Positions 1,295 to 64,000 of a stretch of DNA of 64,000 bases are shown one piece after another (the stretch's first letter is position 1; every line of letters starts with the position of its first letter). The stretch lies in the NCBI GenBank assembly GCA_937903035.1, contig CALCZP010000003.1:1156-65155 (forward strand), in the 5' to 3' direction. A program made the translations under genes and the position numbers. The DNA comes from an uncultured bacterium (lineage in GTDB: Bacteria; Patescibacteriota; Minisyncoccia; Phycocordibacterales; UBA9973). Under the pieces are notes generated by a model. That model saw only the letters and a list, made by a program, of their open reading frames with translations. It was not told the DNA's origin and made no database searches.

Positions 1295-1687
1295 TTACTT
1301 TGTCGAAGCGTACTGTGCAATCGCAGTCGCAACCTTACCTTCATCCGTCAATGACTCATAGAAAACGATATCATCCTTGCGAATCCTCATTTCATCAGTC
1401 GGTGCATGGATTTCATTGCCAAGTTTTACAAGATCGAGGTTGCCACCCTGTGTTGAGAGCTGGTCAATCCCTGTTGTTGATGACGTCCCAGGGCGAAGGT
1501 AGTAAATATCCTTGAGTTTCGCATATCCACCAATCCCCCACGTCAGCTTGCCAAAATACACCTGGCCATTCGATAGAAATACTGCTTTGTATCCATTGTA
1601 CGGATAGAGTCTTCCCGGAAGACCGAGAGTAATAAACAATAGTACGACGATACCGACACCTGCGAGAATTTTATGCGTGAATTTCAT
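1295..1687 (-). CDS. Hypothetical membrane-anchored protein (130 aa)
   Basis: ORF with an N-terminal TM helix (ILAGVGIVVLLFITLGL). No recognisable family. Confidence 0.45.
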   Translation of the reverse strand: MKFTHKILAGVGIVVLLFITLGLPGRLYPYNGYKAVFLSNGQVYFGKLTWGIGGYAKLKDIYYLRPGTSSTTGIDQLSTQGGNLDLVKLGNEIHAPTDEMRIRKDDIVFYESLTDEGKVATAIAQYASTK

Positions 1688-16368: not shown

Positions 16369-16923
16369 TTATTTGGTGAATGTTACAGTTATGACAAATT
16401 GCACATCACGACTTTTGACCAAGTTCGACAAAGGACTATCGACATTTGTAATGCCCTTTGTCGAACGAAGCATTTCAACAAAACGCTGCACCCCTTCACG
16501 ACTCAGAGAAGTTCCCGTGATTTGCATGGTTGGTGTGTCACCTTGCTGCATTACAAATCCTGTAAGGGTAATACCTGTAGTCAGTACGCTTCGCACGAGC
16601 GCAACATATGTTGCAGGAGCCTGGACTACAGGTGTTGCAAACTTTTCAACTAAGACCGTTGTTCGAGCCTGGAGATTGCTGACATCAGAAGGACTCACTA
16701 CTGCCCCACTTGCACGAAACTGCTCTACCTGTTTTGTTGCAAGCTCATAGCGAGTATTAATACTCATCAGTGTCGGAATAAACAACAGCATTCCCGCAGC
16801 AATAAGTACTGCAAGCGATATCATTACCGCCATCAAAACCCTGAACATGCGAAGTCGGTCCACCAATTTCTTTTGATTGTATGGGAGAAGATTAATCATG
16901 GTAGTCAGCAAGTGCGAGTCCAA
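16369..16923 (-). CDS. pilN: Type IV pilus assembly protein PilN
   Basis: Canonical MINLLP start, single TM and periplasmic domain. Overlaps pilM. Confidence 0.65.
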   Translation of the reverse strand: MDSHLLTTMINLLPYNQKKLVDRLRMFRVLMAVMISLAVLIAAGMLLFIPTLMSINTRYELATKQVEQFRASGAVVSPSDVSNLQARTTVLVEKFATPVVQAPATYVALVRSVLTTGITLTGFVMQQGDTPTMQITGTSLSREGVQRFVEMLRSTKGITNVDSPLSNLVKSRDVQFVITVTFTK

Positions 16924-17965
16924 TAGCAGTCACATAACTCATTGCAGCTGCTCGAGGAAGCTCAGGGATTGCATGTTCAAATGACATGCAGTTAACCCAT
17001 GGATTTGCCTGAATAACAGTGAGCTTAAGCATCACACTGAGGTAGTCACAAATACCGTTGATATTACTATTCCCTCCGCAAAGATAGATTGTCTTGATAT
17101 TCGGCAATGCCCCATATTGATCTTTACGTTCGTGCCAATACACATAGCGACGATTGATTTCGTCTTTCAAAATTGAGATACCACCAATCAAACTTGAAAA
17201 TATATCTTTATGTTCGCCAATCGTCGAAAGACCGAACTCACGCATGAGACGACCTGCCTCTGGAGTATCAATAGCAAGCTCTTTTGCAAGTGAGTCGATC
17301 AATGTCTCACCGCCAAATTCAAGTGTTGAGGTGTAGACTGCTGTTCCATTGGTCACAATAGTAATACTGCTGCGATGTGCCCCAAAGTCTACAATCATCG
17401 CACTATCTGGATCTCCTGGTTTGAGCACTGCCCGTGCAATCGCCTGCCCATCAAGTTCAAACGATACTGGAATGAGTCCTGCATTATTGAAACATCCAAA
17501 GTAACTCTGTGCGACGACTTCAGACACTGCCATCACTTGTACAACGATCGTTGTCTCATTTTCAAATAGTACTTCATAATCAAATACAGTTTCGACTGCA
17601 CGCAGCGGAATATTTTCTTCGAGCACAAGCTCGATCGCACCTCTTAAGTCTTCTTTTGCTGCCACATCGAGCGGGAGTGTAAATGAATACACCTGACTTT
17701 CAGGGATTGATACGCGCACATAGCTGAGCTTGTATTTCTTGCGAACGTCGGTGAGAAAGTTTGTAAATGCGCGCTCGTTCACGACGCGACCACTTTGCAT
17801 GCAACCTTCAGGGATAGACATTTCAGCGAATGCTACAGGCATGAGTCCATGACGTCGCTCAGCGAGACGAACAAAACGCATCGTCGCATCAGAAAAATCC
17901 AACCCCACAGTTGGAGCTGCAATGAATGTTGGTGTTGGGAACAAGCGAGAGAGAAGCGGTGGCAC
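16892..17965 (-). CDS. pilM: Type IV pilus assembly protein PilM (actin-like ATPase fold)
   Basis: 357 aa with FtsA/PilM-like sequence throughout. Heads a pilM-N-O arrangement. Confidence 0.75.
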   Translation of the reverse strand: MPPLLSRLFPTPTFIAAPTVGLDFSDATMRFVRLAERRHGLMPVAFAEMSIPEGCMQSGRVVNERAFTNFLTDVRKKYKLSYVRVSIPESQVYSFTLPLDVAAKEDLRGAIELVLEENIPLRAVETVFDYEVLFENETTIVVQVMAVSEVVAQSYFGCFNNAGLIPVSFELDGQAIARAVLKPGDPDSAMIVDFGAHRSSITIVTNGTAVYTSTLEFGGETLIDSLAKELAIDTPEAGRLMREFGLSTIGEHKDIFSSLIGGISILKDEINRRYVYWHERKDQYGALPNIKTIYLCGGNSNINGICDYLSVMLKLTVIQANPWVNCMSFEHAIPELPRAAAMSYVTAIGLALADYHD

Positions 17966-43180: not shown

Positions 43181-43564
43181 TTACTTTTTTTCTTCAAAAT
43201 CTAGACTCGCAGAATTAATACAGTATCGCTTCCCTGTTGTTTCTCTCGGACCATCATTAAATACATGCCCAAGATGTGCACCACAATTGGCACAGACTGC
43301 CTCGATACGACTCATACCATGCGTCGTATCCTCAATATACTTGATTGCATCGGCTTTGACTGGCTGGTCATAGGATGGCCATCCGGTACCTGAGTCGAAC
43401 TTGGTCTTTGCATCAAAAAGCGCTGCGCCACAGACCTTACACCGATACATACCATCAGCATGGTTATCCCAATACTTGTTGCGAAATGGTGCTTCAGTAC
43501 CCTTCTCTTGGGTTACGTAGCGTTCTTCATCACTGAGTGTTTTTAGCTTTTCTTCCTTGTTCAT
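43181..43564 (-). CDS. msrB: Peptide methionine sulfoxide reductase MsrB
   Basis: SelR motifs: zinc-binding CxxC pairs ([18 protein letters not shown]) and catalytic RYCINS. Confidence 0.9.
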
Positions 43565-43688: not shown

Positions 43689-44126
43689 TTATTTCGTCGC
43701 AAGTTTCTCTCGCTTCTCAGTACATTTTTCACAGCCACATCCTTTTGGCTTGATATGTTCGTTCCAATATTCCTTGCCATAGTCATAGAAAAGCTCTTCT
43801 CCTTCTTTGATATTGCGCTTCGCGTAGATAAAGACGCGCCCTTTGATGATGTCGACTTCACAGTTTGGACGACATGAGTGGTTTACATAGCGGGCAGTAT
43901 TTTTGCGGGTCGTACCATCGATATGACGAGTTTTGGTGGTCTGAAAGAGGTATCGCCCACCACGTCGATTTGCTTCATCCTCATCAATCACATCCCCGAT
44001 GTACTCAATAATACAGTCACCCTTTTTCATTGGTACCTTTGCAAAAAGTCCAAGACCGTTTACCCCTCGTTTAACAGCAAGCTCTTTTGGATATGTATAA
44101 ATAGGTGTTGATTTTGATACTGCCAT
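43689..44126 (-). CDS. SET-domain protein (putative protein-lysine methyltransferase)
   Basis: SET motifs GLGLFAKVPMKKGDCIIEYIG, NHSCRPNCEV, ELFYDYG; post-SET Cys cluster CGCEKC. Confidence 0.75.
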   Translation of the reverse strand: MAVSKSTPIYTYPKELAVKRGVNGLGLFAKVPMKKGDCIIEYIGDVIDEDEANRRGGRYLFQTTKTRHIDGTTRKNTARYVNHSCRPNCEVDIIKGRVFIYAKRNIKEGEELFYDYGKEYWNEHIKPKGCGCEKCTEKREKLATK

Positions 44127-50107: not shown

Positions 50108-51205
50108 TTAACGGTTTGTTGGCATGATCAAATATAGGAAGGAGGTATCCTGTACACTTCGTACTACAATAGGCTTATTTGGCGCTGTAAATGATATTGA
50201 GACACTATCGCCAGAGAGTGCTTGAAAGACATCGAGAAAGTACTTTAGATTGAAACTAACCTCAATCCCCTCACCTTCAACAACGGCATCAATTGATGAA
50301 ACCGATGAACCGACATCATTATTCTTTGAATCAATTGTAATTCTCTTATTAACAGGAGAAACAGAAAAAAGTACTTGGAAAAATTTGTCAGCAAAAATAG
50401 TTGAGAGGCGAAGTGTTGAAATAAGCTCTTGTTTCATAAGTACCACCTTAGTTGTTTCAGTTTTTGGAATAATAAGTTGATACTGTGGAAAGGCCCCATC
50501 AATCAGTCGAGTAGTAAAGTAAATACCATTTCCCGAAAGTGATAACTGGTTTCGAGTAAATGTTAATTGAAGATTCTCTGGTGCATTATCAAGTACTTTT
50601 AATATATCAGCAATATTTTTATATGGAATCAATATTTTTGGAATATCAGGAATATTCTTAACCTTTAATTTCTTTTCAGCGAGACGGAATGAGTCGGTTG
50701 CGACAAAACAGAGGTTAGTATCTTCACTATAAATAAAAATACTTGCAATCTCAGGCTTAATCTCAGTGATAGCAGCAGAAAAGTACACCGAACGAATACC
50801 TTCTTGAAATACCGTACTTTTAATTTCAAAACTTTCACCTTCAACAGTAGGAAGTGTTGGGAAGTCATCATGGTTAAGACATTTAAGTACAGTCTTTGAT
50901 TGTAGGGTCGCAATAGTGAGATTATCTGCTTCAAGTGTAAGTGAGAGCTCTAGATTATCCTTTAAATTTCCACAAACATTTGATAGTAAGTCCCCTTTTA
51001 CAAGTACAATACCTTCTTCTTCAATCGTTGCAGGGATATCTATCTCAATTCCAACATTGAGATTAGTAGCTCTGATCTTGAGAGATTTTCCTGAAGCATT
51101 AATAAGGAGTCCATGAAGTGATGGGAGAGTGAGATTCTTGCCAGTCATACGCTCTGCAAGGGATACTGCTTGTTTTATTTTTTCTACGGTACATCGAGCT
51201 TTCAT
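50108..51205 (-). CDS. dnaN: DNA polymerase III beta sliding clamp
   Basis: 365 aa with a three-domain beta-clamp pattern. Immediately downstream of dnaA. Confidence 0.9.
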   Translation of the reverse strand: MKARCTVEKIKQAVSLAERMTGKNLTLPSLHGLLINASGKSLKIRATNLNVGIEIDIPATIEEEGIVLVKGDLLSNVCGNLKDNLELSLTLEADNLTIATLQSKTVLKCLNHDDFPTLPTVEGESFEIKSTVFQEGIRSVYFSAAITEIKPEIASIFIYSEDTNLCFVATDSFRLAEKKLKVKNIPDIPKILIPYKNIADILKVLDNAPENLQLTFTRNQLSLSGNGIYFTTRLIDGAFPQYQLIIPKTETTKVVLMKQELISTLRLSTIFADKFFQVLFSVSPVNKRITIDSKNNDVGSSVSSIDAVVEGEGIEVSFNLKYFLDVFQALSGDSVSISFTAPNKPIVVRSVQDTSFLYLIMPTNR

Positions 51206-51401
51206 AGTAGTGTTTTATTTTTTATTAATTGATTGAGTAGTTAGTATGTGTTGTGGATTGGGGAAAAGATGATTGTACGTTTTTAAATAAGGATTTTTTA
51301 AATATGAGCACTGTGTGCGAATTGGTGATATATCCTCCCTTTTTCTTATACCTAGTATTTTTCCGCAAGTTATTCATCGTGGTATTAGGATGTTTTCCAC
51401 A
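51206..51401. promoter_or_regulatory. dnaA-dnaN intergenic region with DnaA-box-like motifs and an AT-rich tract (candidate oriC/DUE)
   Basis: ttttccaca (51394-51402) and tgtggattg (51253-51261) match TTWTNCACA. AT-rich run tttttaaataaggattttttaaatat. Confidence 0.45.
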
Positions 51402-52763
51402 TCATTTAAACAATATGCGGATATCCTCAATCTCTTTCATTAGACTCGGGTTATGTACTAACTCACTTTTAATTTTTTCATACGAATGAATGACTGTACT
51501 ATGATCTTTACCACCAAGTTTTGAACCGATTGATGGGTATGACTCATTGAAATCCTCTCGAAGGACGAACATAATGACTTGTCGTGCTCGAACAATTTCT
51601 TTACGCCGTGTTTTCTCATAAATAGTACGTTCATCAAGATTGTAATACCCTGATACAAGTTTCACTACTGTATCAAAAGACACCATTTTCTTTGGTTTAA
51701 CACTATTTTTAATAAGTAATTTAATCTCACTGAGTGCAACAGGTTTTTGACGCATTTCAGAATGCATTGCAATAACATTGAGTATTCCTTCAAGTTCACG
51801 GATACTTCCGGTTGCAACTGAAGAGATATATTGGAGAACCTCATTATCAAGTGGATATGGAAGTGTTGCAGCCTTTTCTCGAATAATAGCAAGACGTGAC
51901 TCCATATCTGGTTCTTGAATATCAATAGTCATACCTGCATTAAATCGTGTTTTAAGACGATCTTCGAGACCGAGGATGTGGTTTGGATGTTTATCAGATG
52001 AAAAGATAATATTCTTCCCTTGCTCATAGAGCGTATTAAAGAGGTGAAATAGTTCGTTCTGAGTACCATCTTTTCCTGAGATAAATTGGATATCATCAAT
52101 GATTAATACGTCTATTTTTCGAAACTTCTCACGGAATGACTGCTGACGATTGTTTTGTACTGAAGTCACAAACTCATTCATAAACTTTTCAAGTGAGGTA
52201 TAGAGTACATGCTTTTCAGGGAATGCTTTTTTAATCTCATTACCAATAGCTTGGATAAGGTGAGTCTTCCCTAAACCACTCTCACCATAGATAAAGAGTG
52301 GATTGTAGGCACTCTGAGGACGTTTTACCACTGCCTGGGAGGCTGCGTATGCAAGCTCGTTGAATGAGCCAACAATAAAACGATCAAAGGTGTATCGAGG
52401 GTTAAGGTTATCATCTCTATTAATATAGAGATCTTGCATTGGAAGTTGTGTTTTCTCTGTAAAAAGTGAATCGGTTGTTGTAGTTGTTGTAGGAGGAGTA
52501 AAGCGGCTGATAACAAATTCAACCCCTCGAATATTGTCGATATGGTTTACTAATGTCTTTAAAATAACTTTTTGGTATTTGGTTACCATCCATTCTCGTA
52601 CAAATTCGTTTGGTACTCCTATGTAAATAATACCCTCCTCTTCTTTAGTGATAGTGGTGTTCTTAAACCAGGTACTGAAATTACCTTTTGTGACTTCCTG
52701 TTCTATTTCTCCTAGGCAAGTGTTCCAGAGTGTGGAGAGGTCGTAGTGCATGGTATCTATCAT
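51402..52763 (-). CDS. dnaA: Chromosomal replication initiator protein DnaA
   Basis: AAA+ Walker A GESGLGKTHL, Walker B VLIIDDIQF, sensor/arginine finger, C-terminal HTH (…ARQVIMFVLRE…). Start trimmed to MIDTMHYD; the track ORF is extended across rpmH. Confidence 0.9.
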   Translation of the reverse strand: MIDTMHYDLSTLWNTCLGEIEQEVTKGNFSTWFKNTTITKEEEGIIYIGVPNEFVREWMVTKYQKVILKTLVNHIDNIRGVEFVISRFTPPTTTTTTDSLFTEKTQLPMQDLYINRDDNLNPRYTFDRFIVGSFNELAYAASQAVVKRPQSAYNPLFIYGESGLGKTHLIQAIGNEIKKAFPEKHVLYTSLEKFMNEFVTSVQNNRQQSFREKFRKIDVLIIDDIQFISGKDGTQNELFHLFNTLYEQGKNIIFSSDKHPNHILGLEDRLKTRFNAGMTIDIQEPDMESRLAIIREKAATLPYPLDNEVLQYISSVATGSIRELEGILNVIAMHSEMRQKPVALSEIKLLIKNSVKPKKMVSFDTVVKLVSGYYNLDERTIYEKTRRKEIVRARQVIMFVLREDFNESYPSIGSKLGGKDHSTVIHSYEKIKSELVHNPSLMKEIEDIRILFK

Positions 52764-52876
52764 ACCGAGTATTGGGTAGCTATCAAAATTGTGTATATCA
52801 TGTGGATAGTGTTGATTATAGCAATATATATCAGGCTTGATTAAATAAACCTTTTTGTGTATAGTGAGCGAGTTAT
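52764..52876. promoter_or_regulatory. rpmH-dnaA divergent intergenic region with three DnaA-box-like motifs (dnaA promoter/autoregulation, possible oriC part)
   Basis: tgtggatag (52801-52809, reverse complement CTATCCACA), gtgtatata (~52791) and tgtgtatag (~52858). Confidence 0.45.
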
Positions 52877-53011
52877 ATGTCTCAAACATACCAACCTAAA
52901 AAACGAAAGCGCGCAACTACTCATGGATTTCTCGTCCGTAGCGCTAGTGCGACTGGTCAGAAAGTCCTTCAGGCACGTCGCCGTAAGGGACGCGCTAAAA
53001 TCGCTGTCTAG
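52877..53011 (+). CDS. rpmH: 50S ribosomal protein L34
   Basis: Hand translation gives [44 protein letters not shown]. It is absent from the ORF track because it is shorter than 60 aa. Confidence 0.85.
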
Positions 53012-53013
53012 CT

Positions 53014-53337
53014 ATGTTGCCGTCAACTGAACGGCTTACTCGCCTCGAGTTTCCTCTTGTACTTACTAATCCGTCTCTTAAAACGGTCTATAATGCGCTT
53101 GGTACCCTTAAATATACCACTACACTACCTTTGAAATGTGCTGTAATTACAAGCTCAAAACACGAAAAACGCGCTGTTATACGCAATAAACTTCGCCGAC
53201 GCATCTATACACAAATGGTTGGTTTTCCAGGGTCTGCTGTTTTGTATGTTTCAAAACAAAGTTATGGTATGGAATATCAACAAATAGAGCAGCTTTGGCA
53301 TGAATTACTCTCAAAAATTCAAAAAAATACCAAATAA
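53014..53337 (+). CDS. rnpA: Ribonuclease P protein component
   Basis: RNR motif RNKLRRRI, 107 aa, directly after rpmH. Confidence 0.85.
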   Translation: MLPSTERLTRLEFPLVLTNPSLKTVYNALGTLKYTTTLPLKCAVITSSKHEKRAVIRNKLRRRIYTQMVGFPGSAVLYVSKQSYGMEYQQIEQLWHELLSKIQKNTK

Positions 53338-53566
53338 TATAGCTATTTTAGCTATTAAGGTATATCGAGGACTACTCTCGCCTTCAGTCGGATTGTTGCG
53401 ATTTTTACCTCTATATCCGACTAATACCTGTATTTTTCATCCAACATGTTCTCAGTATGCCATTATGGCCTATACAAAATACGGGTTTTTTGACGCAACC
53501 CATAAAACAATAGGTCGTATTGGTCGTTGTCATCCTAGAAATACACCTTCTGTTGACTATCCTTAA
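53300..53566 (+). CDS. yidD: Membrane protein insertion efficiency factor YidD
   Basis: YRGLLSP…CIFHPTCSQYA motif. The 5' end overlaps rnpA, so the true start is probably downstream of 53300. Confidence 0.7.
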   Translation: MNYSQKFKKIPNNIAILAIKVYRGLLSPSVGLLRFLPLYPTNTCIFHPTCSQYAIMAYTKYGFFDATHKTIGRIGRCHPRNTPSVDYP

Positions 53567-53595
53567 GGTAGGTTTTAGACTACACTACCCTTTAT

Positions 53596-54300
53596 ATGCA
53601 AACATTGTGGACCAACTTCATTTACGACCCTATTTATAACGCCCTTATTTTTATTGCACAGAACTTAACCTGGCAAGACGTTGGTGTGGCGGTTATCGTC
53701 CTTACTATCCTTATTCGGCTCATATTGATGCCCCTTTCTAAGAAAAGTATTGCTGGACAGTATAAAATGAAGCTTTTAGAGCCAAAGCTTGCTGCTATCA
53801 AGGCAAAAGGTCTTTCAAAAGAAGAAGAAGCAAAAGAAACCTTTGCACTTTATAAGACTGAGAAAATTAACCCGTTTTCAGGATGTCTTTATCTCTTAAT
53901 CCAACTTCCAATTCTTTTTGCCCTCTACTTCACGTTTATGCGTGGTGTGATTCAGCCGGAGCACTTGTACTCATTCCTTTCAACTGAAGGTCTCCATAAT
54001 ACACTATTTGGACTTATTGATATCACTAAGCCATTTCTACCACTCGCTATCCTTGCGGGTATTAGTCAGGGTGTACAGGCATATTTTGCACCAAAACCGT
54101 CGATTCCAACTGATGGAAAAGGATTTCAGGCACAATTTGCGCAGAGTCTTTCACTCCAGACTAAATATATCCTCCCAATTATCATTATCCTTATCGCTAG
54201 TCGTCTTGCCGCCGCTGTCGCGCTCTATTGGACCATTACCAATATCTTTTCTATTGTTCAGGAATACTATCTCCGAAAACGTTTTGCCGTTAGTTCTTAA
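53596..54300 (+). CDS. yidC: Membrane protein insertase YidC (short Oxa1-type, 234 aa)
   Basis: Five-TM Oxa1 core with a charged first loop (KLLEPKLAAIKAKG) and the conserved YWTITNIFSI C-terminal region. Confidence 0.8.
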   Translation: MQTLWTNFIYDPIYNALIFIAQNLTWQDVGVAVIVLTILIRLILMPLSKKSIAGQYKMKLLEPKLAAIKAKGLSKEEEAKETFALYKTEKINPFSGCLYLLIQLPILFALYFTFMRGVIQPEHLYSFLSTEGLHNTLFGLIDITKPFLPLAILAGISQGVQAYFAPKPSIPTDGKGFQAQFAQSLSLQTKYILPIIIILIASRLAAAVALYWTITNIFSIVQEYYLRKRFAVSS

Positions 54301-55545
54301 TTAAAACGAGAGCTGCCATAACAGGCCAGTTGGCTTGTCGATAAAAAAGACGATATCTTGGTTCTCATCTACCTGAAGATTAGTTGCATCAGGTGCTCGC
54401 TCTGTACCATCTGAAAGAATCGTGTAGGTATTACTTGTTGTATAGATACGATAGAACTTATCTTTAAAGCTAACAAGTCCGCTATACCACATGTCAGGGT
54501 AGCTTCCGGGTGCCATTTCCCCATTTCCTGCACAGATGAGATCCTCATTTTTAAGCCAAGTACATTTTTCAGGGAGTAGTGCAATATTTAGATTGTTTGA
54601 TACCCCTGTTTTCGTATTTAAAAGCCGAGTAATAAAGCCAGTACTTGTGCTTTGTGAGTATAAAATATAGGTCCCACTTGGACTTACTGATGTGGTAAGA
54701 CCTTTAATATTCCCAAGTACGCGAACAAGTCTTCGATCAGTTGTATCTATTTTATAGAGAAAACCATCTGCAATAGCTGCTGCTTTGGTTTGGAGCCAAA
54801 CTGTTTTTGGTGTTGATTGAATAATTATCCATTCATGAAACGGTGTTCGAAGGAGCTCTTTTCTACCTGTATTTTGACTAGTTGCGCTCAAAATACTAGC
54901 GTTTTGAGTATCACTTGTGAGATATGTAATCTGTTTTTGGTCGGCATAAACTGAAAGGTTGGTGATTTTTTCAGGAAGATATATCCCCTGTTTTTGCGTT
55001 CTAGTACCATCTTGGTTTTCAGGTGGAATCGGAACACTATATGTTGCGATTGTGCGCTGGTCATCACGAAGAAAACGAAGGATTGCAGTATTGTTTGTAT
55101 CCGCAAAGTGTCCTTCATAAACGTTAGGAATATAGATATTACTGATCTGAAGCGGTGTTGTACTGTTTCGGATCTCATACACATAGCCATTCCCTCGAGC
55201 AATATAGCGAATAACACGATCAACCACTGTTTCTGTTGTTGGTTTTTTCTTGGGATCCTCTGAAGGGATCGTCTTTGATAGGGTTTGAGTAAATGCAGAA
55301 AAACCCGCAACAGGGCTTTGGCTAAGCTGTTTGAACTTTAGTGATGTATTCTGACCTGTTTGAACGCCAGTACTACCATCATTGATAATGAGATCGCTTC
55401 CGGGTGCTACCAATGCATCACTAGGAAAGAATGTTGTTGCACCTGGAGGTTGTTCAGTACTAGTTGGTTGTTTTTTACTGTACCAATACAAAATTCCTGT
55501 GCTAACCAATAGAATTATTACTATCACAATAAGTACTTTTCGCAT
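54301..55545 (-). CDS. Hypothetical membrane-anchored extracellular protein (414 aa), first gene after the origin block in the T4SS-like cluster
   Basis: N-terminal TM, Thr/Ser-rich sequence, possibly a beta-propeller-like domain. Confidence 0.4.
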   Translation of the reverse strand: MRKVLIVIVIILLVSTGILYWYSKKQPTSTEQPPGATTFFPSDALVAPGSDLIINDGSTGVQTGQNTSLKFKQLSQSPVAGFSAFTQTLSKTIPSEDPKKKPTTETVVDRVIRYIARGNGYVYEIRNSTTPLQISNIYIPNVYEGHFADTNNTAILRFLRDDQRTIATYSVPIPPENQDGTRTQKQGIYLPEKITNLSVYADQKQITYLTSDTQNASILSATSQNTGRKELLRTPFHEWIIIQSTPKTVWLQTKAAAIADGFLYKIDTTDRRLVRVLGNIKGLTTSVSPSGTYILYSQSTSTGFITRLLNTKTGVSNNLNIALLPEKCTWLKNEDLICAGNGEMAPGSYPDMWYSGLVSFKDKFYRIYTTSNTYTILSDGTERAPDATNLQVDENQDIVFFIDKPTGLLWQLSF

Positions 55546-55570
55546 ACAAGTATTGTACTATATGTAGAAT

Positions 55571-57271
55571 TTATATTCTTCGAATGTATAAAGAATATTT
55601 CTTCTGAATACGAGTATTTGCCCATTTAACAATAGGGTTTTCTCCTACAGAAGGGTTTGGGGATGAACGGACATCCATAAGGGTTCCATCTCCTATATAG
55701 ATGAGTACATGCCCCCCTGATGTATAAGGTTTAGCACCACCCGCTTGCCATCCTATTAAATCGCCAACCTTAACCTCAATACCATTTATAAGATATTTAC
55801 CGTTTTTATTTTCGACAGTTATTATTTTTTCTGTTCCATTAAAAATATCACCAGTAAATGCTTCTGTTTTTGGTGTTATTCCCGCACATGAAAGTACTGT
55901 ATTTACATATGAACTACAATCAAGATTGATTACGGTAGATGAATATGCGGTTCCTCGTGCATCTTGTGAATAAGATACTCTACCCTTAAAACTCTGTGCA
56001 ATAGTAGGTATTGTACCAGCGCCAATATTTTTTGCGGGACAAATAATTCCTGCTGGGAATTTAATACTTTTAAAATCATATCCAGTTCCACCTTTTCCTG
56101 ACCCCACTGATCCTGATTTTGGTGGTATATCCCCTCCTTCTTCAAAATCTACCCCCACCGCCACCTTATTCAAGCTAATACTATTCTCTACAAGCTTCGG
56201 ATTGATGGTATTTAATATCAGATAGGCAGACAATGCCAACGCAAGCCCTCCTAATGCCTCAAAGAAGCCACTCTTGGCACTTGCCTTCAAAAACGGTATA
56301 TCAGTCACAATATACTGATATCCCTCATAGACGAGACGAAGCACCAACAATACTGCCGCCAAACTCACCAACAGTTTGAACATATAGTTCAGAAAGTCAT
56401 TAATGTCACAGATCTCCCCTCCCTTTCCCTTCTGAGATCGTTGTTCTTCACACAGGTCAGGATCCAAAAGTACTGAGAGTCCTGGAAATGGTGCAAGGAG
56501 ACGGTATGAGCGGGAGTCGAAGTCGGATTGAACAGAAGCTGCGTCTGTTGCAACTTTTCCTTTGTCAGAAGTGAGTATGCCAACATCAGTAACCATCTGC
56601 TTCCCTGTTGGAGAAGTGAGAAGTATTTTATAGTAGTACTTCACTTCGGTACCAAGGTCATTCAATGACCAATAGAGAGATCCGTCTGCGGCAACACCTT
56701 CAGTACTTCCTGAGATATCTGTTTTTGATTTAAAGAGCTTAGTACTACCCGAAGCATTCATTACTCCATCAGGAAGTGGTACGGTATCTAGATATAATGT
56801 CGCGGTGAATTTCTTGAAATCAGGGTGAATTGTTGTATTAATTTTACTACTAACAATTAGTGGAGTGCCTTTGGTTATTGTTGCAGGATCTGCTGCAAGG
56901 AATGTTTCTTGTGGAGTAACGATATAAAAGTCTTTCCCTTGGGCGTCACGTGCGGCAAGTCCAACAAAATAGCGTTTATCGGTCGGTATAGTGGTAACTA
57001 CTTGTGAGGCAGTTGCACCAGGCTTCAAATTGTTAATAGCGACAGTACTACTGCCTGAAACTTTAGTGTCCTGATTTAGTATTGTTGTCGTTGAAGGCGT
57101 AAAAACAAGATAGAATAACTTGTTTTTGTCAGTTGTCGGTAGGGTATATGTTACTAAAAGGCCACCTTGTTGTAATTGAGATGTAAGTGTATATCCATTA
57201 CCAGCGTGCACTAGATTGATCGGAATAACTACAAGGAGAAAGCCAAGAAGTGCAATAAAGCCCTTTTTCAT
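55571..57271 (-). CDS. T4SS-associated cell-wall hydrolase-like protein: signal peptide, extracellular domain, shared 2-TM module, C-terminal NlpC/P60-CHAP-like domain
   Basis: The C-terminus has a Cys...His pattern (DCSSYVNTVLSCAGI … GGHVLIYIGDG) like CHAP/NlpC-P60. The central 124 aa are identical to the paralogue. Confidence 0.55.
   Translation of the reverse strand: MKKGFIALLGFLLVVIPINLVHAGNGYTLTSQLQQGGLLVTYTLPTTDKNKLFYLVFTPSTTTILNQDTKVSGSSTVAINNLKPGATASQVVTTIPTDKRYFVGLAARDAQGKDFYIVTPQETFLAADPATITKGTPLIVSSKINTTIHPDFKKFTATLYLDTVPLPDGVMNASGSTKLFKSKTDISGSTEGVAADGSLYWSLNDLGTEVKYYYKILLTSPTGKQMVTDVGILTSDKGKVATDAASVQSDFDSRSYRLLAPFPGLSVLLDPDLCEEQRSQKGKGGEICDINDFLNYMFKLLVSLAAVLLVLRLVYEGYQYIVTDIPFLKASAKSGFFEALGGLALALSAYLILNTINPKLVENSISLNKVAVGVDFEEGGDIPPKSGSVGSGKGGTGYDFKSIKFPAGIICPAKNIGAGTIPTIAQSFKGRVSYSQDARGTAYSSTVINLDCSSYVNTVLSCAGITPKTEAFTGDIFNGTEKIITVENKNGKYLINGIEVKVGDLIGWQAGGAKPYTSGGHVLIYIGDGTLMDVRSSPNPSVGENPIVKWANTRIQKKYSLYIRRI
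56152..56525. repeat. Copy 1 of a perfect ~373-bp direct repeat
   Basis: Identical nucleotide run to 58080-58453 by direct comparison of the sequence lines. It encodes DFDSRSYRLLAPFPGLSVLL…KLVENSISLNKVAVG. Confidence 0.85.
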
Positions 57272-57291
57272 TCTTCAAGTGTACCACGGTA

Positions 57292-58854
57292 TTATTTATA
57301 CCTTCGTTCTGCCTCATCACGTGAAGAAATAATAGTCCCTGTTTTACATTGGTTATATACCCATACTTTCATGGCAATATCTTTTCGAAGTGAAGTACTG
57401 CATCCAAGTCCTGCAAAGTTATTAAAAATTTGGGCAGGTGTCCCACCATTACACGTTTTAACCGCTGCTTGAAAACGAGTGACACTCATCTGAATATTTT
57501 TTTCAGGATCATAGTAGATATTGATTGCATCAGCGACTGTTTTTGCACCAGCCTTAATTAGGTCATCATTGTTTTCTACAGGATCAAGAAGGATTGTTGT
57601 AGGGCTTGCTCGTTTTGGATATAAAACACCATTTTCTTTTGTTGCTGCGAGATAGGTTGTTTCATTGTTGTAAGGTGCAGGAAATACTGTTACCTGCGAA
57701 AGTCCAAACCCTTTTGAAAAGCGCCAGTCATAGTCTTTGTAAATATCGGTACTTGATCGAGGGCACTGGTTAAGAACTTTTTTATCACCATAGAGTGCCG
57801 TTGAGCCAGTAAATTTTTCACCATTAAACTTGATTCCTGATTGTACAAAAATACGACGTGACTTAATACTTGAAAGACTAGTTACATTTTCATCACATGA
57901 AATATTTTTTGCATCCCAGTCTGATTCAACAGTGTTTGAAGCAATCAAGTAACAAGGGTCAAGACCTGCTTTTGTAGCAAGTGTTTTGGTTAGTGTAATG
58001 TACTCCTGTTTTGTTTTTGATGGCTTACCAGTGATTTTAGTGAACTGTGCATCACTAATTGATCCACGGTACTCCTCAATCCCCACCGCCACCTTATTCA
58101 AGCTAATACTATTCTCTACAAGCTTCGGATTGATGGTATTTAATATCAGATAGGCAGACAATGCCAACGCAAGCCCTCCTAATGCCTCAAAGAAGCCACT
58201 CTTGGCACTTGCCTTCAAAAACGGTATATCAGTCACAATATACTGATATCCCTCATAGACGAGACGAAGCACCAACAATACTGCCGCCAAACTCACCAAC
58301 AGTTTGAACATATAGTTCAGAAAGTCATTAATGTCACAGATCTCCCCTCCCTTTCCCTTCTGAGATCGTTGTTCTTCACACAGGTCAGGATCCAAAAGTA
58401 CTGAGAGTCCTGGAAATGGTGCAAGGAGACGGTATGAGCGGGAGTCGAAGTCTTGTTGAGTTGCAGGTATTGCACTTGCGCCTGCGGCGCTGGTTGTTGT
58501 TGTGTTATATACTTTTGATTCTTCGGTTGTTTTCCCGTCTGATACTTTTTGTTTGAAATAGTATGTTGTGCTCGGGGTAAGATCGGTGAATGTCCATCCA
58601 TAGGTACCATCATTCCCTATTGCTTTTGTCGGAGGAATATCAGTTTTGATAACTGTTTTAAAATCTGCAACATTACTTAGATAGCCTTTAATACTAAATG
58701 TTTTGAATGTTGGATGTTTTACGGTATCTATCTTTCCTGCAACAGAAAAAGTACTACCACTAATCTGTGTTACGAGGTCTTGTTCAACAAGTGCCGCATG
58801 AGCAATCGAGTATGGAATTGCTAAAAAAAAGAGTGCAATAACTAAACGCTTCAT
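57292..58854 (-). CDS. T4SS-associated protein: signal peptide, FN3-like extracellular domain, shared 2-TM module, C-terminal lysozyme/lytic-transglycosylase-like domain
   Basis: Same central module as the NlpC/P60 paralogue. The C-terminal domain is rich in conserved-looking acidic and aromatic residues (…LIASNTVESDWDAK…GLSQVT…). Start may be M1 (58887) or M12 (58854). Confidence 0.5.
   Translation of the reverse strand: MKRLVIALFFLAIPYSIAHAALVEQDLVTQISGSTFSVAGKIDTVKHPTFKTFSIKGYLSNVADFKTVIKTDIPPTKAIGNDGTYGWTFTDLTPSTTYYFKQKVSDGKTTEESKVYNTTTTSAAGASAIPATQQDFDSRSYRLLAPFPGLSVLLDPDLCEEQRSQKGKGGEICDINDFLNYMFKLLVSLAAVLLVLRLVYEGYQYIVTDIPFLKASAKSGFFEALGGLALALSAYLILNTINPKLVENSISLNKVAVGIEEYRGSISDAQFTKITGKPSKTKQEYITLTKTLATKAGLDPCYLIASNTVESDWDAKNISCDENVTSLSSIKSRRIFVQSGIKFNGEKFTGSTALYGDKKVLNQCPRSSTDIYKDYDWRFSKGFGLSQVTVFPAPYNNETTYLAATKENGVLYPKRASPTTILLDPVENNDDLIKAGAKTVADAINIYYDPEKNIQMSVTRFQAAVKTCNGGTPAQIFNNFAGLGCSTSLRKDIAMKVWVYNQCKTGTIISSRDEAERRYK
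58080..58453. repeat. Copy 2 of the perfect ~373-bp direct repeat
   Basis: Identical to 56152-56525. Confidence 0.85.
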
Positions 58855-58855
58855 A

Positions 58856-59806
58856 CTAGTTGAACAAAATAGTAAACAGTCGCTCAATATGCTGCAAGCT
58901 ATATGCTACTGTGCTGATTGCGAGATTGACTCTACTCTCCCCTCCTTCATCAGGACGTGAAAGACGAAGTTCGTTTACACGTGGATCTCCTGCGATTGCA
59001 GTATCTCCAGCGCTCATTTCTATATTGAGACTATCCATAATTGATCCAAGAAATGAAAAGAAAAAAGGTTCAAAGTGGAGGATAAGCCCTGCCTGGTTTG
59101 TTGTAATAGATTGAGTACTCCCAATCGCATAGTTGATAAATCCGTCATTATTTTGATACGCAACCAATGATGGAGAGACCGGGGTTATGGTTACTGCATT
59201 TGTGCCGACAAATGAGCCTGATTCAAGGGTTAGTTCAACTGTATCACTCGTCGCTAGTGCACCATTTTGAAATACAAAGCTTGATTTGTTATACCCTGAG
59301 CTATCTTGCTGTATTTCGTCGTTGTGAGACCATTTAAAAACATTATTTTTAGGAGCAGTTGCTGCAGGAATACCTACTACTCGGATAAGGGCTCCATCTG
59401 CAGGAAGTGCTTTTCCTTTATAAAAAGGTGGTGTGTATGAGTCAGCTGCCTCCCACAAGAGATCAACACTTGCAGGTCTCAGTGTTATTGAGGCAGTTGC
59501 GGGGATAATTGTTCCTGAGGTTGTTGCGATAATAATACCTGTCTGACCTGCCTTTGGTGCAGTTACAACAATTTCGGTTTTGCCCGTACCCGAAGTAATC
59601 AAGGCACCATTGTATTTCCACGTAATAACTGTCTGATTTAAATCAAGGCTAAAACTCTGAGCCTTCAAAAAGACTTGCTGGCCAGGGGCAGGATTTCCTG
59701 GAGTAGCAGTAATTGCCATGTCTGCTGACTGCGCAACGACTGTTCGTGGTATGAGTACATATACAGATAGTACGATAGCTGCCACAATGGCTCGATACAT
59801 GTCCAA
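58856..59806 (-). CDS. Secreted hypothetical protein (316 aa) in the T4SS-like cluster
   Basis: Signal peptide MDMYRAIVAAIVLSVYVLIPRTVVAQS. Confidence 0.45.
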   Translation of the reverse strand: MDMYRAIVAAIVLSVYVLIPRTVVAQSADMAITATPGNPAPGQQVFLKAQSFSLDLNQTVITWKYNGALITSGTGKTEIVVTAPKAGQTGIIIATTSGTIIPATASITLRPASVDLLWEAADSYTPPFYKGKALPADGALIRVVGIPAATAPKNNVFKWSHNDEIQQDSSGYNKSSFVFQNGALATSDTVELTLESGSFVGTNAVTITPVSPSLVAYQNNDGFINYAIGSTQSITTNQAGLILHFEPFFFSFLGSIMDSLNIEMSAGDTAIAGDPRVNELRLSRPDEGGESRVNLAISTVAYSLQHIERLFTILFN

Positions 59807-59822
59807 AGTATAGCACTTTTAC

Positions 59823-61637
59823 TTAGTGTTGCTCACGAAACTCCTGCTTTGCACGCTGAATCGAAATCACCTGGGAAGGATCTGATGTAATAATTTGGTC
59901 TTCGGTATATGAGGCAATGATTTTAAGTGCGACATGTTTGAGACCAGCAAAGAATATCCCCTCCCCAACACCTGACTCGAGCAAGAGATATTTTTCTTCA
60001 TCGGTAAGGTTGAATGTCTTTTGGAGGACATCTACCGTTGACGGTGATTGCTTGAGGAGTAGTTGAATGGATGAGTTGGTCACAATCGGTACGCCATACG
60101 GACTCTTCATAAAGTCACCTACGTCTTGGGTGATCGTACAGAGTCCGAGGTAATATTTACGCCCACGTTTTGCAATCGAGTACAAAAATGATGCTGTGTC
60201 ATCTGATTTCATCATCCACCACGCCTCATCAACTACAAGGAGGCGCTTTTTGAGTTGTTTACGGACAGCATTCCAAATAAAGTGTGTCACGATGTACATC
60301 GCTGCTGGTTTGAGATCGTCCTCCATGTCTCGTACCGAAAAGACCACAAATTTTTTGTTAATGTCGACGTTGGTTGGCTGGTTGATGAATGTTGCCCATG
60401 AGCCGTGGGTATATTTGGTGAGACGAGCAAGGATAGACTCTGTGCCCTCCATACCTGAGAGTACCATTTCAAAGTCCGAGAGGAGTGGTGGCTCAATACT
60501 GCGAAAGTCTGACTCCGCAGTGATATCTTTGAGACTATATGTTTCGGTGATCGCACGGTCAATAATAGAGTCTTCCTCAGGAGATAGCCCCCCAAGCATA
60601 ATACGCATGAGTCCGACGATATTGATGATATTGCTTCTGAGGACATCTGATGGAGACTCATCTTCCCGAGGGATTGGTAGGTCAAATGGGTTGATATGGT
60701 GATCTGATGAGAGTGAAATGTTAAAGTATCGCCCACCAATCGCTTCGGCGAGATATTCGTATTCACGTTCAGGGTCGATCACGATCACATCAGTATCAAA
60801 CATGAGGGTTCGCACAATTTCAAGTTTGGTTGCGTATGACTTACCTGCACCGGATTTGGCAAAGATAATTGAGTTATAGTTTTCAAGGGAAAATCGATCG
60901 AAAATCACGAGTGATGAGTTGTGGCGATTCACACCATAGAGAATCCCCGTCTCACTCGTAAGGTCAAATGAAACGAATGGAAACATACTCGAGATTGGCT
61001 CCGAGTTCATCTTTTGAGTCACATTGAGCATATCAGTACCAATCGGTGTCACCGTCTTGAAACCGTCTTCTTGTTGAAAGAGTGTTGGCTTGATATAGAT
61101 CATTTTGGATTCAAGCATGCTCTTGATCTCGCTCTCACTTCGAAACAGATCGGTTTCGTTATCAGCATAAATGGTGATATAGAAACCAATGTTAAACATC
61201 TTTTCTTGTGCTTGAGTTAGGTTGTCACGAAGCTCTTCGAGGTCTTGGTATGCGGTATCAAGCATTGGGTCCCTGACGAGACCTTTTTGTTGACGGACAA
61301 TAATCTGACTTTCAACCTCGGCAATTTTCTTTTGAAAATGTTTAAGGAGCTCTGCTGTTTCGATCGGATTTACGTAGATTGCAATATCAAAGACTTTGTC
61401 GAGGTTGATGATCGGAGTGAGCCAGTTGTCAGTGAGAAAACGCGGGTATGAGATGACAAAAAAGGTACGGACAAGTTTGTCCCCAATACGCATTGCTTTT
61501 GGGGTGATCTCAATCGCTGATGGTGCGATTTTGTCGGAGAGCTCCATTGTTGCCCATTCATGAATATCAGCTGTTGAAATAGGCAGGAGTTTACTTCCAT
61601 TTGTTGGTTCTTGTTTTGCTGAGCCGAATATCGACAT
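59823..61637 (-). CDS. VirB4/TrbE-family type IV secretion ATPase, C-terminal part (ATPase domain)
   Basis: Walker A FAKSGAGKSYATK, Walker B LLVVDEAWWMM, and the VirB4 C-terminal region. Confidence 0.8.
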   Translation of the reverse strand: MSIFGSAKQEPTNGSKLLPISTADIHEWATMELSDKIAPSAIEITPKAMRIGDKLVRTFFVISYPRFLTDNWLTPIINLDKVFDIAIYVNPIETAELLKHFQKKIAEVESQIIVRQQKGLVRDPMLDTAYQDLEELRDNLTQAQEKMFNIGFYITIYADNETDLFRSESEIKSMLESKMIYIKPTLFQQEDGFKTVTPIGTDMLNVTQKMNSEPISSMFPFVSFDLTSETGILYGVNRHNSSLVIFDRFSLENYNSIIFAKSGAGKSYATKLEIVRTLMFDTDVIVIDPEREYEYLAEAIGGRYFNISLSSDHHINPFDLPIPREDESPSDVLRSNIINIVGLMRIMLGGLSPEEDSIIDRAITETYSLKDITAESDFRSIEPPLLSDFEMVLSGMEGTESILARLTKYTHGSWATFINQPTNVDINKKFVVFSVRDMEDDLKPAAMYIVTHFIWNAVRKQLKKRLLVVDEAWWMMKSDDTASFLYSIAKRGRKYYLGLCTITQDVGDFMKSPYGVPIVTNSSIQLLLKQSPSTVDVLQKTFNLTDEEKYLLLESGVGEGIFFAGLKHVALKIIASYTEDQIITSDPSQVISIQRAKQEFREQH

Positions 61638-61685
61638 TGGTAGCTATAGTATAGCAGTATATTACTGCAAGTGGATGGAGTATGA

Positions 61686-62327
61686 CTATGAACCGTTTGC
61701 TTGAGTCGTTGTTTCTCCAGGATTGTATGTCTTGTAGAGTAGTTCGATAACTTCTTGTGTTCCGAGTTGTGCCACGCGAAGACCAAGTCTGGTGAGTCCT
61801 TGTTCTACAACACTCATACGCTGTTCAATTTGTGTTCGTTCTTCTTCAAAGTTTTTAATATCATCTCCTATGGTGTCTTTACCTTTGTTTAAAAACGAAA
61901 GTATTTTTGATACCCCTCCCCCTTTTTGGTTGAGTACTGGTGGAATATATGGGATGACTACAAAGAAATTTTTGCGCATGATGTTGACGTTGTCAGTAAA
62001 TGAGCGGATGAACTCAATGTATTCCCGTGTTTGTACTTGGAGGAGTTGTTCTTGTTGTTCCTTGAGTCTGTTTTCAAGAGTGACGAGGTATGGTCTCACA
62101 TCATAGCGTCGTGATTGGATCACTATTTCGATTGGAAAGTCGAGTGTATTGAGAAAGCTTTGGAACTGCACCAATGTTGCTCGCTGTTCATCATATGACT
62201 TAAGCGAGAGATTGATCGAGGACACGAGTACTACAGATGCAAGTGTCCCATCTTTCAAGACCACGATACCATCGCGTACTTCTTGGACAGGGACAAATTG
62301 TTGGGCTGGAGTACCGATGATTGCCAT
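61686..62327 (-). CDS. VirB4/TrbE N-terminal domain encoded as a separate ORF
   Basis: IVVLKDGTLASVVLVSSINLSLKSYDEQRATLVQFQSFLNTL parallels the VirB4 N-terminus. Same frame as the downstream ATPase ORF, separated by 48 nt containing three stops. Confidence 0.55.
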   Translation of the reverse strand: MAIIGTPAQQFVPVQEVRDGIVVLKDGTLASVVLVSSINLSLKSYDEQRATLVQFQSFLNTLDFPIEIVIQSRRYDVRPYLVTLENRLKEQQEQLLQVQTREYIEFIRSFTDNVNIMRKNFFVVIPYIPPVLNQKGGGVSKILSFLNKGKDTIGDDIKNFEEERTQIEQRMSVVEQGLTRLGLRVAQLGTQEVIELLYKTYNPGETTTQANGS

Positions 62328-62336
62328 ACTGTAGAT

Positions 62337-62753
62337 TTAGTTAGTCGGATTTTGAACGTCGAGGCTCCATGAGAGGGTTTTGAGTTTACTCTCAGAAAGT
62401 GTAGCACGATTTGTAGGAGCAGCCGGGATAGATTTCTTTGTTTCAACTTTTTGTTGTGATCGCCAGAGGTAGAGTCGTGAGCGCAGATAGTATTTGATGA
62501 ATGATTCAACTGTATATATAAAGGGCTTTTCGTTGTACTTGAAAAAAGCGAGCGCAAGTGCAAAGCCTGCAAATGCTGGGACAAGTACGATTGCGACAAA
62601 TGCGGGGAGAAACTTCATCGACAGATAGGCAAATCCTGCTCCCCCGGCAAGGTATGCGAACTGTTTGAAGGTGAGTGGTCCAAAGACCTTGTCTTCGATA
62701 TCAATAAATTGTGGAACCTTAAACTGCATAGGTATAGTATAGCGTGAACGCAT
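62337..62753 (-). CDS. VirB3/PrgI-like small two-TM T4SS membrane protein
   Basis: 138 aa with two adjacent TM helices (FAYLAGGAGFAYLSMKFLPAFVAIVLVPAFAGFALALAFF), immediately upstream of virB4. Confidence 0.5.
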   Translation of the reverse strand: MRSRYTIPMQFKVPQFIDIEDKVFGPLTFKQFAYLAGGAGFAYLSMKFLPAFVAIVLVPAFAGFALALAFFKYNEKPFIYTVESFIKYYLRSRLYLWRSQQKVETKKSIPAAPTNRATLSESKLKTLSWSLDVQNPTN

Positions 62754-62785
62754 ACAAAAAGCGCCTCAGTGGGAGGCGCTTTTTG

Positions 62786-63307
62786 TTAGAGATCGATTGG
62801 TTCGCGGTAGAGATCTGCTGATGCAGGAGGTGTAGTGCTTGTCGGAGTTTTATTGAGACTCACATCGCGCTTCATCGGAGGTGCAATCACTGCTGATTGG
62901 GTGAAGCGGCTCCCCATTGTTTCAAGTGCTGTCTGAGAAATGGTTTGCGTAGATTCAAGTTCTGCTTTTTTGAGCTCTTCTTCTGTCGGGCTAAAAAAGG
63001 TGCTGATCTCTGCTGCACGACTCAGGATTTCGACATTGATAGCATAGAGGATATTGACTGCAAGCTTCTCGTCTACTCCCTGTGCTTTCCATTCTTCCGC
63101 AATATCTTCTACGGTTTTGAGTCCCAGTACCAGCATTTTTGCGGCATGCTCTACCATTGTTTTCTGAGTATCAGAAAGGTTGAGTGCCTTTGCTATGGCA
63201 TTTATGAGGACAGTGAAGCTCTTGCTCGACATGAAGTGGAGCACCTCAGGTGGTGTTGTTGCAAATGCTTCTTCGATCGGGTCTATTGTAGTGGTATCAG
63301 TATCCAT
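62786..63307 (-). CDS. Hypothetical acidic protein (173 aa) in the T4SS-like cluster
   Basis: ORF only. Confidence 0.35.
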   Translation of the reverse strand: MDTDTTTIDPIEEAFATTPPEVLHFMSSKSFTVLINAIAKALNLSDTQKTMVEHAAKMLVLGLKTVEDIAEEWKAQGVDEKLAVNILYAINVEILSRAAEISTFFSPTEEELKKAELESTQTISQTALETMGSRFTQSAVIAPPMKRDVSLNKTPTSTTPPASADLYREPIDL

Positions 63308-63309
63308 GG

Positions 63310-63954
63310 TTATTTTTTGGGTTCTGCTGGCTTCTCATCTCCCCCTTCTTTCTTTTTCTTACTTTCTTCGTCATTATTATACTTTTCAAGCTTTTCTTTT
63401 TGAATGTCACGCTCTTTGATTGCTTCTCGCAGTTCTTTGATTGAAGCTCGTCGTTCTTCGTTGGCAACTCGAGCGGTAATTTTATCAGCATCAGATGATG
63501 ATGGATTTTTGATGATAGCCTCATCCTTCTCGATCTCTGTCTCCAGCTTCGCGACATTTGTTGCAACCGCGCGCTTGAGGTCATGTTGTGGATCATCAAT
63601 CTTGATGTTGTCTGCATCAAGGTGTTCATTACCAGGTATACTCTTGATTGCTTCTTTAAGCGTATTCTCGTACATATCAATCTTTGCCTGTATCTTTGCA
63701 GCGGTCGTACCGGTTTGTTTTTGCGCCGCCTTGATAGTGGCATCGGCTGCTTTGAGATGAATGTTACCGATCTGATCAATAGCTCCACCTGCAAGATCGA
63801 TACCAACTGCTGTACTAATAGTGCCTACCAATCCTGGAGCAACTACGCCTAGCGTGCCAGCCAAAGTCCCTATTGCTGTTCCTAGTGGGGCACGCTCACC
63901 CTCTGTCATCCATAGTGAGTTTGCCTTGAGATTCTCAGCATATTCAGCACGCAT
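63310..63954 (-). CDS. Hypothetical coiled-coil, Lys/Glu-rich protein (may extend beyond the window)
   Basis: ORF with a long coiled-coil and KE-rich tail. An upstream start beyond position 64000 cannot be excluded. Confidence 0.35.
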   Translation of the reverse strand: MRAEYAENLKANSLWMTEGERAPLGTAIGTLAGTLGVVAPGLVGTISTAVGIDLAGGAIDQIGNIHLKAADATIKAAQKQTGTTAAKIQAKIDMYENTLKEAIKSIPGNEHLDADNIKIDDPQHDLKRAVATNVAKLETEIEKDEAIIKNPSSSDADKITARVANEERRASIKELREAIKERDIQKEKLEKYNNDEESKKKKEGGDEKPAEPKK

Positions 63955-64000
63955 TGCAGCTTCAAATGCTTTCTTATTTTTGATAGGACCGTATTGTGCA

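Follow-up and report, generated by a model that had tools for sequence, protein, structure and literature searches.

In the Patescibacteria, chromosomal T4SS have recently been surveyed (Quinonero-Coronel et al. 2025, Microb Genom, PMC12102498), and the parts of that survey available to us report that their gene clusters are often located near dnaA, dnaN and rnpA, and that, among T4SS components, TrsD homologues are the most abundant in these bacteria, with 1,664 of them associated with virB4. The same parts assign no function to TrsD, describe its homology to the VirB4 N-terminus as remote, and list the TrsD homologue of Ca. Southlakia epibionticum as essential; fused forms, a split point and a conserved TATACT box are not among the subjects that they discuss. 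For the homology between TrsD and VirB4 the survey cites Guglielmini et al. 2014, whose main text does not mention TrsD, and the statement rests on the survey's own wording (PMC12102498).

A second point of comparison is the MPF-FATA type of system, represented by TrsD/TrsE of the Staphylococcus aureus plasmid pGO1 and also by TraD/TraE of pSK41/pIP501. In pGO1, a small VirB3-like gene is followed by trsD (227 aa), a gene for a 672-aa ATPase, a membrane protein gene and a gene for a CHAP hydrolase. In the CD1110 family, in the VirB4 of Mycoplasma ICEs and in TrwK of R388, by contrast, VirB4 is a single polypeptide.

Here, we examine a T4SS locus within a 64,000-nt stretch of DNA (the window, meaning the whole stretch that was analyzed), and conclude that VirB4 is very probably encoded as two separate functional genes, this being the standard state in the chromosomal T4SS of this Patescibacteria (Paceibacteria/Nomurabacteria-like) lineage. 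The relevant features of the window are:

62337..62753, minus strand: gene for a PrgI-family (VirB3-like) small membrane protein (Pfam PF12666 PrgI)
61686..62327, minus strand: TrsD-like stand-alone ORF of 213 aa, with its stop codon TAG at 61688-61686
61685-61638, minus strand: intergenic spacer of 48 nt between the 213-aa and 604-aa ORFs, TCATACTCCATCCACTTGCAGTAATATACTGCTATACTATAGCTACCA
61664-61662 and 61646-61644, minus strand: in-frame stop codons of the spacer, TAA and TAG respectively
61661-61656 and 61653-61648, minus strand: two TATACT hexamers in the spacer
61655-61643, minus strand: palindrome GCTATA-C-TATAGC within the spacer
61648..61653, minus strand: -10-like TATACT box at a distance of 10 nt before the ATPase ATG; it is the core of the palindrome that is conserved
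59823..61637, minus strand: gene for a 604-aa VirB4-type ATPase (TrsE-like), with its ATG at 61637 and its end at 59823
60837-60851, minus strand: intact Walker A motif GAGKS, aa 263-267 of the 604-aa ORF
60219-60242, minus strand: intact Walker B motif LLVVDEAW, aa 466-473 of the 604-aa ORF
54301..59806, minus strand: four downstream T4SS-cluster genes, of 316 aa, 531 aa, 566 aa and 414 aa
53596-54300, plus strand: yidC (Pfam)
53014-53337, plus strand: rnpA (Pfam)
51402-52889, minus strand: dnaA (Pfam)
50108-51205, minus strand: dnaN (Pfam)

An earlier, sequence-only reading of this DNA had reported the coordinates, the 48-nt spacer, the common reading frame of the 213-aa and 604-aa ORFs, the stops and the palindrome, all of which prove exact when read on the minus strand. 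The prgI product scores 42.9 bits against PF12666 (Pfam cut-off 27), and prgI is the gene immediately before the TrsD-like ORF, with a gap of 9 nt, an order that is kept in six assemblies. Downstream of the ATPase gene, two ORFs, of 531 aa and 566 aa, match T4SS_pilin weakly (18.6 and 18.8 bits, below the Pfam cut-off of 26.6), and the 566-aa ORF carries an NlpC/P60 or Amidase_5 hydrolase domain (NlpC_P60 25.8 bits, Pfam cut-off 23). The cluster adjoins the replication-origin neighborhood at 50108..54300 (dnaN, dnaA, rnpA, yidC). Our Pfam scan for T4SS genes covered the ORFs from 54301 to 64000, where the cluster runs off the end of the window, and an Rfam scan of the whole window returned seven tRNAs only, with nothing in the spacer. 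At the head of the cluster (63310-64000 and beyond; L001 1-3018) stands a very large ORF, 1260 aa by the assembly gene call, upstream of a 173-aa ORF that is in turn followed by prgI; the 1005 aa of this large ORF that are present gave no Pfam match, and it may represent a VirB6-like or surface component.

The gene content and location of the locus are those of a chromosomal T4SS of the Patescibacteria (MPF-FATA-related clade), with pilin matches below the Pfam cut-off. Like the systems in the available parts of the survey (PMC12102498), it has a small TrsD-like gene beside virB4, a PrgI/VirB3 gene and weak pilin-like matches downstream, and it is chromosomal and lies beside dnaA, dnaN and rnpA. 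As far as those parts go, the two-gene TrsD-like plus VirB4 arrangement is already described there, and the window, which shows no substantive difference, holds one more, ordinary instance of it.

The two ORFs tile one VirB4 profile. On NCBIfam conju_CD1110 (NF045971, 752 positions), the 213-aa ORF matches positions 2-118 and the 604-aa ORF alone matches positions 174-732, with 384.8 bits against a cut-off of 325. In the alignment to full-length VirB4 that the sequence-only reading had proposed, the small ORF thus falls on the first ~120 profile positions and the large ORF on the rest, so that the pair together cover the profile as do the single-chain VirB4 proteins of the CD1110 family and the Mycoplasma ICEs; the difference from these proteins and from TrwK is that there is one polypeptide there and two here. 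The score of the 604-aa ORF on the generic VirB4 profile TIGR00929 (VirB4_CagE) is below cut-off (118.5 against 643). The VirB4 C-terminal domain structure PDB 4AG5 matches the 604-aa ORF at residues 229-585 (E 6.8e-41), TrwK matches it with E 2.4e-7, and Pfam reports a P-loop_TraG match. From these comparisons, residues 229-585 are the ATPase domain, and residues 1-228 make up the second part of VirB4's N-terminal region. The earlier assignment of the 604-aa ORF to the ATPase domain therefore holds for residues 229-585 and has to be given up for the first ~228, which go with the N-terminal region.

The 213-aa product is TrsD-like, the counterpart of the first subdomain in VirB4's N-terminal region. 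It matches NCBIfam VirB4_plasma (Mycoplasma ICE VirB4) at positions 106-233 of 894 (E 4e-11), and the VirB4 N-terminal similarity that the sequence-only reading had claimed for it is confirmed by NCBIfam profiles, fused homologues and a fold search alike. Its match to the NCBIfam TrsD/TraD family (NF041427) reaches 27.1 bits where the cut-off demands 200 (E 3.1e-6) and covers residues 14-94 only, so that it is best described as a remote homologue of TrsD/TraD and, by the NF041427 cut-off, not a member. When the 213-aa family was compared with the single pGO1 TrsD sequence by hhalign, the match was weak (probability 5%) and is given no weight here. The precomputed annotation of the 213-aa protein and of its 120 best homologues carries PF26593 'TraC-like', and our own Pfam scan of the protein, with a copy that probably lacks this model, gave no match at E <= 10. 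A PDB sequence search with the 213-aa ORF returned chance matches only (best E 0.14). Structure prediction with AlphaFold gave a model of moderate confidence (pLDDT 62, pTM 0.52), which we used solely for the specificity of its top Foldseek matches; in the PDB, all of the top 14 were TrwK/VirB4 chains of R388 (probability 0.91-1.00), at a low TM of ~0.39. TrwK is thus the best fold match of the modeled small protein, and the C-terminal domain of the 604-aa product is homologous to both TrwK and 4AG5. Homologues of the 213-aa ORF number 3154 in 90% clusters, and the best 120 of these 3154 are all 207-218 aa long.

Measured against what defines VirB4, the locus departs in one respect, in that the N-terminal region and the ATPase domain are not joined in one polypeptide and are separate genes in all relatives; as expected of VirB4, it adjoins a VirB3-like gene within a T4SS cluster, with PrgI upstream and the hydrolase and weak pilin matches downstream. 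A stand-alone protein of ~200 aa is found between the VirB3-like gene and an ATPase gene that lacks that N-terminal piece. This is the gene order of pGO1, in which a VirB3-like gene, a ~200-aa TrsD, an ATPase, a membrane protein and a hydrolase follow one another. Residue 1 of the window ATPase aligns to residue 3 of TrsE, and since the ATPases align from their first residues, the gene boundary lies at a homologous position in pGO1 and in the window. The two loci differ in other ways: the small protein resembles TrsD only very distantly (27 bits, cut-off 200; hhalign 5%), the trsD-trsE gap in pGO1 is 14 nt, and plasmid pGO1 is conjugative and carries a relaxase and a coupling protein, whereas the window locus is chromosomal and next to the origin. 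On the basis of the literature, the window T4SS is probably not conjugative.

Fused homologues are rare. Of the 150 representatives (clustered at 50% identity) that are closest to the small ORF, 95 were of 190-270 aa, 42 of 271-460 aa and 11 were fragments, leaving two fused proteins, P0247 (797 aa) and P0220 (898 aa). In P0247, from Candidatus Colwellbacteria, the small ORF aligns to residues 8-211 and the ATPase ORF to residues 230-796 (52% identity), with a linker of 18 residues between the two regions; the linker of P0220 is P/A-rich and ~100 residues long. As judged from these alignments, the split point coincides with a short or disordered linker in the fused proteins. The nearest relatives of both are stand-alone forms, which leads us to infer that two genes were the ancestral state of the group and that the fusions are secondary. 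Separately, we observe that 42/150 of the closest stand-alone TrsD-like representatives carry P/A/Q/T-rich, apparently disordered C-terminal tails of 60-230 residues (among them P0139, P0155, P0159, P0178, P0179 and P0225), and that the inter-domain linker of P0220 is the same kind of sequence as these tails.

Several explanations other than two functional genes have to be weighed against the conservation of this layout. That the sequence is of metagenomic origin only might suggest an assembly or sequencing artefact, as the sequence-only reading had cautioned, yet the same layout of 213 aa, 48 nt and 604 aa recurs in six independent assemblies from different samples, each time with the exact 213-aa protein, a PrgI-family gene before it and the 48-nt gap and ATPase ORF after it, and an artefact is exceedingly improbable. 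The relatives come from a scan of one genome per species, which gave 24 loci (43-92% identity, 22 of them informative) in genomes named as Paceibacterota, Nomurabacteria, Patescibacteria, Minisyncoccia, Parcubacteria or 'Saccharibacteria'. An uninterrupted gene, which would have spoken for a broken copy in the window, is found in none of these related genomes: the split is present in 22/22 informative species-level loci. Their small ORF ends at ~206-215 aa and is followed by an ATPase ORF of its own, ~595-727 aa long, shorter in two cases (416 and 504 aa, near contig ends), with the ATPase start M-[SAG]-[LI]-F conserved. The notion of a continuous virB4 broken by mutation in a decaying system gains some plausibility from two ORFs that share a frame with stops between them and from the existence of rare fused homologues. 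Against it, all relatives down to 43% identity are split, the ATPase start is conserved, the Walker motifs are intact, and the comparison with L007 gives dN/dS values of 0.031 (small ORF) and 0.010 (ATPase ORF) at a dS of ~1.5, near saturation. Both ORFs are under strong purifying selection, and we consider a pseudogene very improbable. A regulatory insertion into a continuous gene, also entertained earlier, does not fit either, every relative being split with spacers that vary in length and frame; what the split in all relatives and the purifying selection bear out is the earlier suggestion of a genuine two-gene VirB4.

The common frame in this genome might also be taken to mean that read-through, stop-codon reassignment or frameshifting across the spacer yields a single full-length VirB4. 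The ribosome would then have to pass three stops, with both TAG and TAA among them, although TAG and TAA terminate other conserved ORFs in related loci, and the gaps between the ORFs, at 6, 18, 20, 20, 25, 25, 26, 27, 27, 29, 30, 32, 36, 36, 41, 42, 48, 49, 65, 89, 111 and 115 nt, fall in all three frames, including that of the 92%-identical relative. The spacer's 5' part is not conserved, and in one further locus, L030, the spacer is 495 nt long and holds a complete inserted gene. We give this explanation next to no credence. The insert in L030 (4314-4682) is a complete 122-aa 23S_rRNA_IVP (four-helix-bundle) gene between the TrsD-like and ATPase ORFs. The L030 small ORF had looked truncated (88 aa) and a candidate for decay, an interpretation that we rejected on finding that the ORF holds a masked run of N.

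The striking details of the spacer do not exceed chance. Given the composition of the spacer, 16 codons should hold 0.75 stops on average, with a probability of 0.17 for at least two, and the common frame, for which the prior is 1/3, is seen in 11/23 loci with the window included (p = 0.11). In the closest relative, L007 (92% identity), the spacer is 49 nt and the ORFs are out of frame; between it and the window, conservation is confined to the last ~19 nt before the ATG, the 5' 30 nt of the spacer having diverged. The palindrome was considered as an operator and rejected, since the TATACT half alone is conserved among relatives and the second arm is not. The in-frame stops, the common frame and the palindrome are thus incidental, with no role of their own, and the weight that the sequence-only reading had placed on the frame and the three stops finds no echo in the relatives, among which neither is conserved.

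One element of the spacer is conserved. An exact TATACT lies 6-10 nt before the ATPase ATG in 19/19 informative loci with 71-92% protein identity, the window included; the ATPase-gene spacers of these loci are otherwise unalignable, and the box is often preceded by TG or G. The second TATACT of the window (61656-61661), 8 nt upstream of the conserved one and 18 nt from the ATG, is not conserved in L007. Across the window, 10/39 TATACT hexamers have, 6-10 nt further on, an ATG that opens an ORF of at least 80 aa, and in the related loci 41/114 stand 6-10 nt before an ORF-opening ATG, compared with 1-8% for control hexamers. A TAnAnT box also lies ~6 nt before the start in 3/4 downstream T4SS ORFs (316, 566 and 414 aa), and TATACT/TAnAnT boxes 6-10 nt before starts occur in loci L007-L029 as well. 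Genes of the window that are preceded by TATACT/TAnAnT are:

491-1258, minus strand
1295-1687, minus strand
16892-17965, minus strand
43181-43564, minus strand
43689-44126, minus strand
53596-54300, plus strand
54301-55545, minus strand
55571-57271, minus strand
58856-59806, minus strand

In leaderless and short-leader promoters, such as those of Actinobacteria and Deinococcus, the -10 box lies 6-10 nt from the ATG. It is plausible that TATACT serves as the -10 box of the ATPase gene, and its distribution suggests that transcripts with very short leaders, or none, are widespread in this Paceibacteria-like lineage. The internal promoter proposed by the sequence-only reading is to this extent retained, given TATACT in 19/19 closer loci, with the correction that the palindrome is not the conserved element. 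A scan of 59700-62900 for canonical sigma-70 -35/-10 promoters and for terminators found neither in the spacer, and a search of the literature on leaderless transcription in Patescibacteria/CPR returned nothing relevant. In four of the longer spacers (L011 4628-4742, L018 4631-4678, L028 828-916 and L029 4640-4750), we noticed by eye hairpin-like inverted repeats, which sit upstream of the start-proximal box and could be terminators or CPR-typical repeat elements.

A different account of the box accepts both genes as real and holds that TATACT is no promoter: the genes would be co-transcribed from upstream of prgI, and the box would be a translation-initiation or other signal, on the assumption that the genome has no Shine-Dalgarno sites at these starts. 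This account draws on the lack of a -35 partner at canonical spacing, on the short and fixed distance from box to ATG, which resembles that of a ribosome-binding signal, and on the tight packing of the genes on one strand. It has more difficulty with the fit of the hexamer to the -10 consensus TAnAnT, often with TG before it, and with the spacing of 6-10 nt to the ATG, which is typical of leaderless and short-leader promoters; the hairpins seen by eye upstream of the box in L011, L018, L028 and L029 would, moreover, suggest termination followed by re-initiation. We regard it as rather unlikely.

Under the reading that we prefer, of two functional genes, the 213-aa and 604-aa polypeptides would associate non-covalently and so rebuild a complete VirB4 motor. 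The VirB4 N-terminal region is said to contact VirB3 in R388, in work attributed to Mace et al. from 2022, and the probable membrane partner of the TrsD-like piece here is PrgI, the VirB3-like protein encoded next to it. A 1:1 pairing of VirB3 and VirB4 has been mentioned (PMC12857230). The ATPase gene may be started by its own TATACT box, 10 nt before the ATG, to give a very short-leader transcript, as may happen at many other genes of this genome, and could in that way be transcribed on its own. A fuller version of this reading, in which the split is a functional design, the two-gene state is ancestral and, boundary included, common to the pGO1 subclass, and P0247 and P0220 are secondary re-fusions, is possible, and we put it forward tentatively. 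Were it true, TATACT would give the ATPase its own short-leader transcript, the amounts of the ATPase and of the TrsD-like piece (made together with PrgI/VirB3) would be set independently, and the P/A/Q-rich tail present on many stand-alone TrsD-like proteins would have been the route to the re-fusions.

For genome annotation, these results mean that a naive or automated reading may flag the locus as a disrupted virB4, though it is an intact and selected form. T4SS of this type are reported, in the available parts of the survey, to be essential for epibiotic growth in a cultivated relative (PMC12102498). To that survey our analysis makes two modest additions. One is evidence that the TrsD-like protein, there of unassigned function, is the detached first subdomain of VirB4, a view that we base on the profile tiling, the linker in the fused forms, the gene boundary shared with pGO1 and the TrwK fold match. 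The other is the -10-like box conserved before the ATPase gene, which may allow the motor's two parts to be expressed from separate starts.
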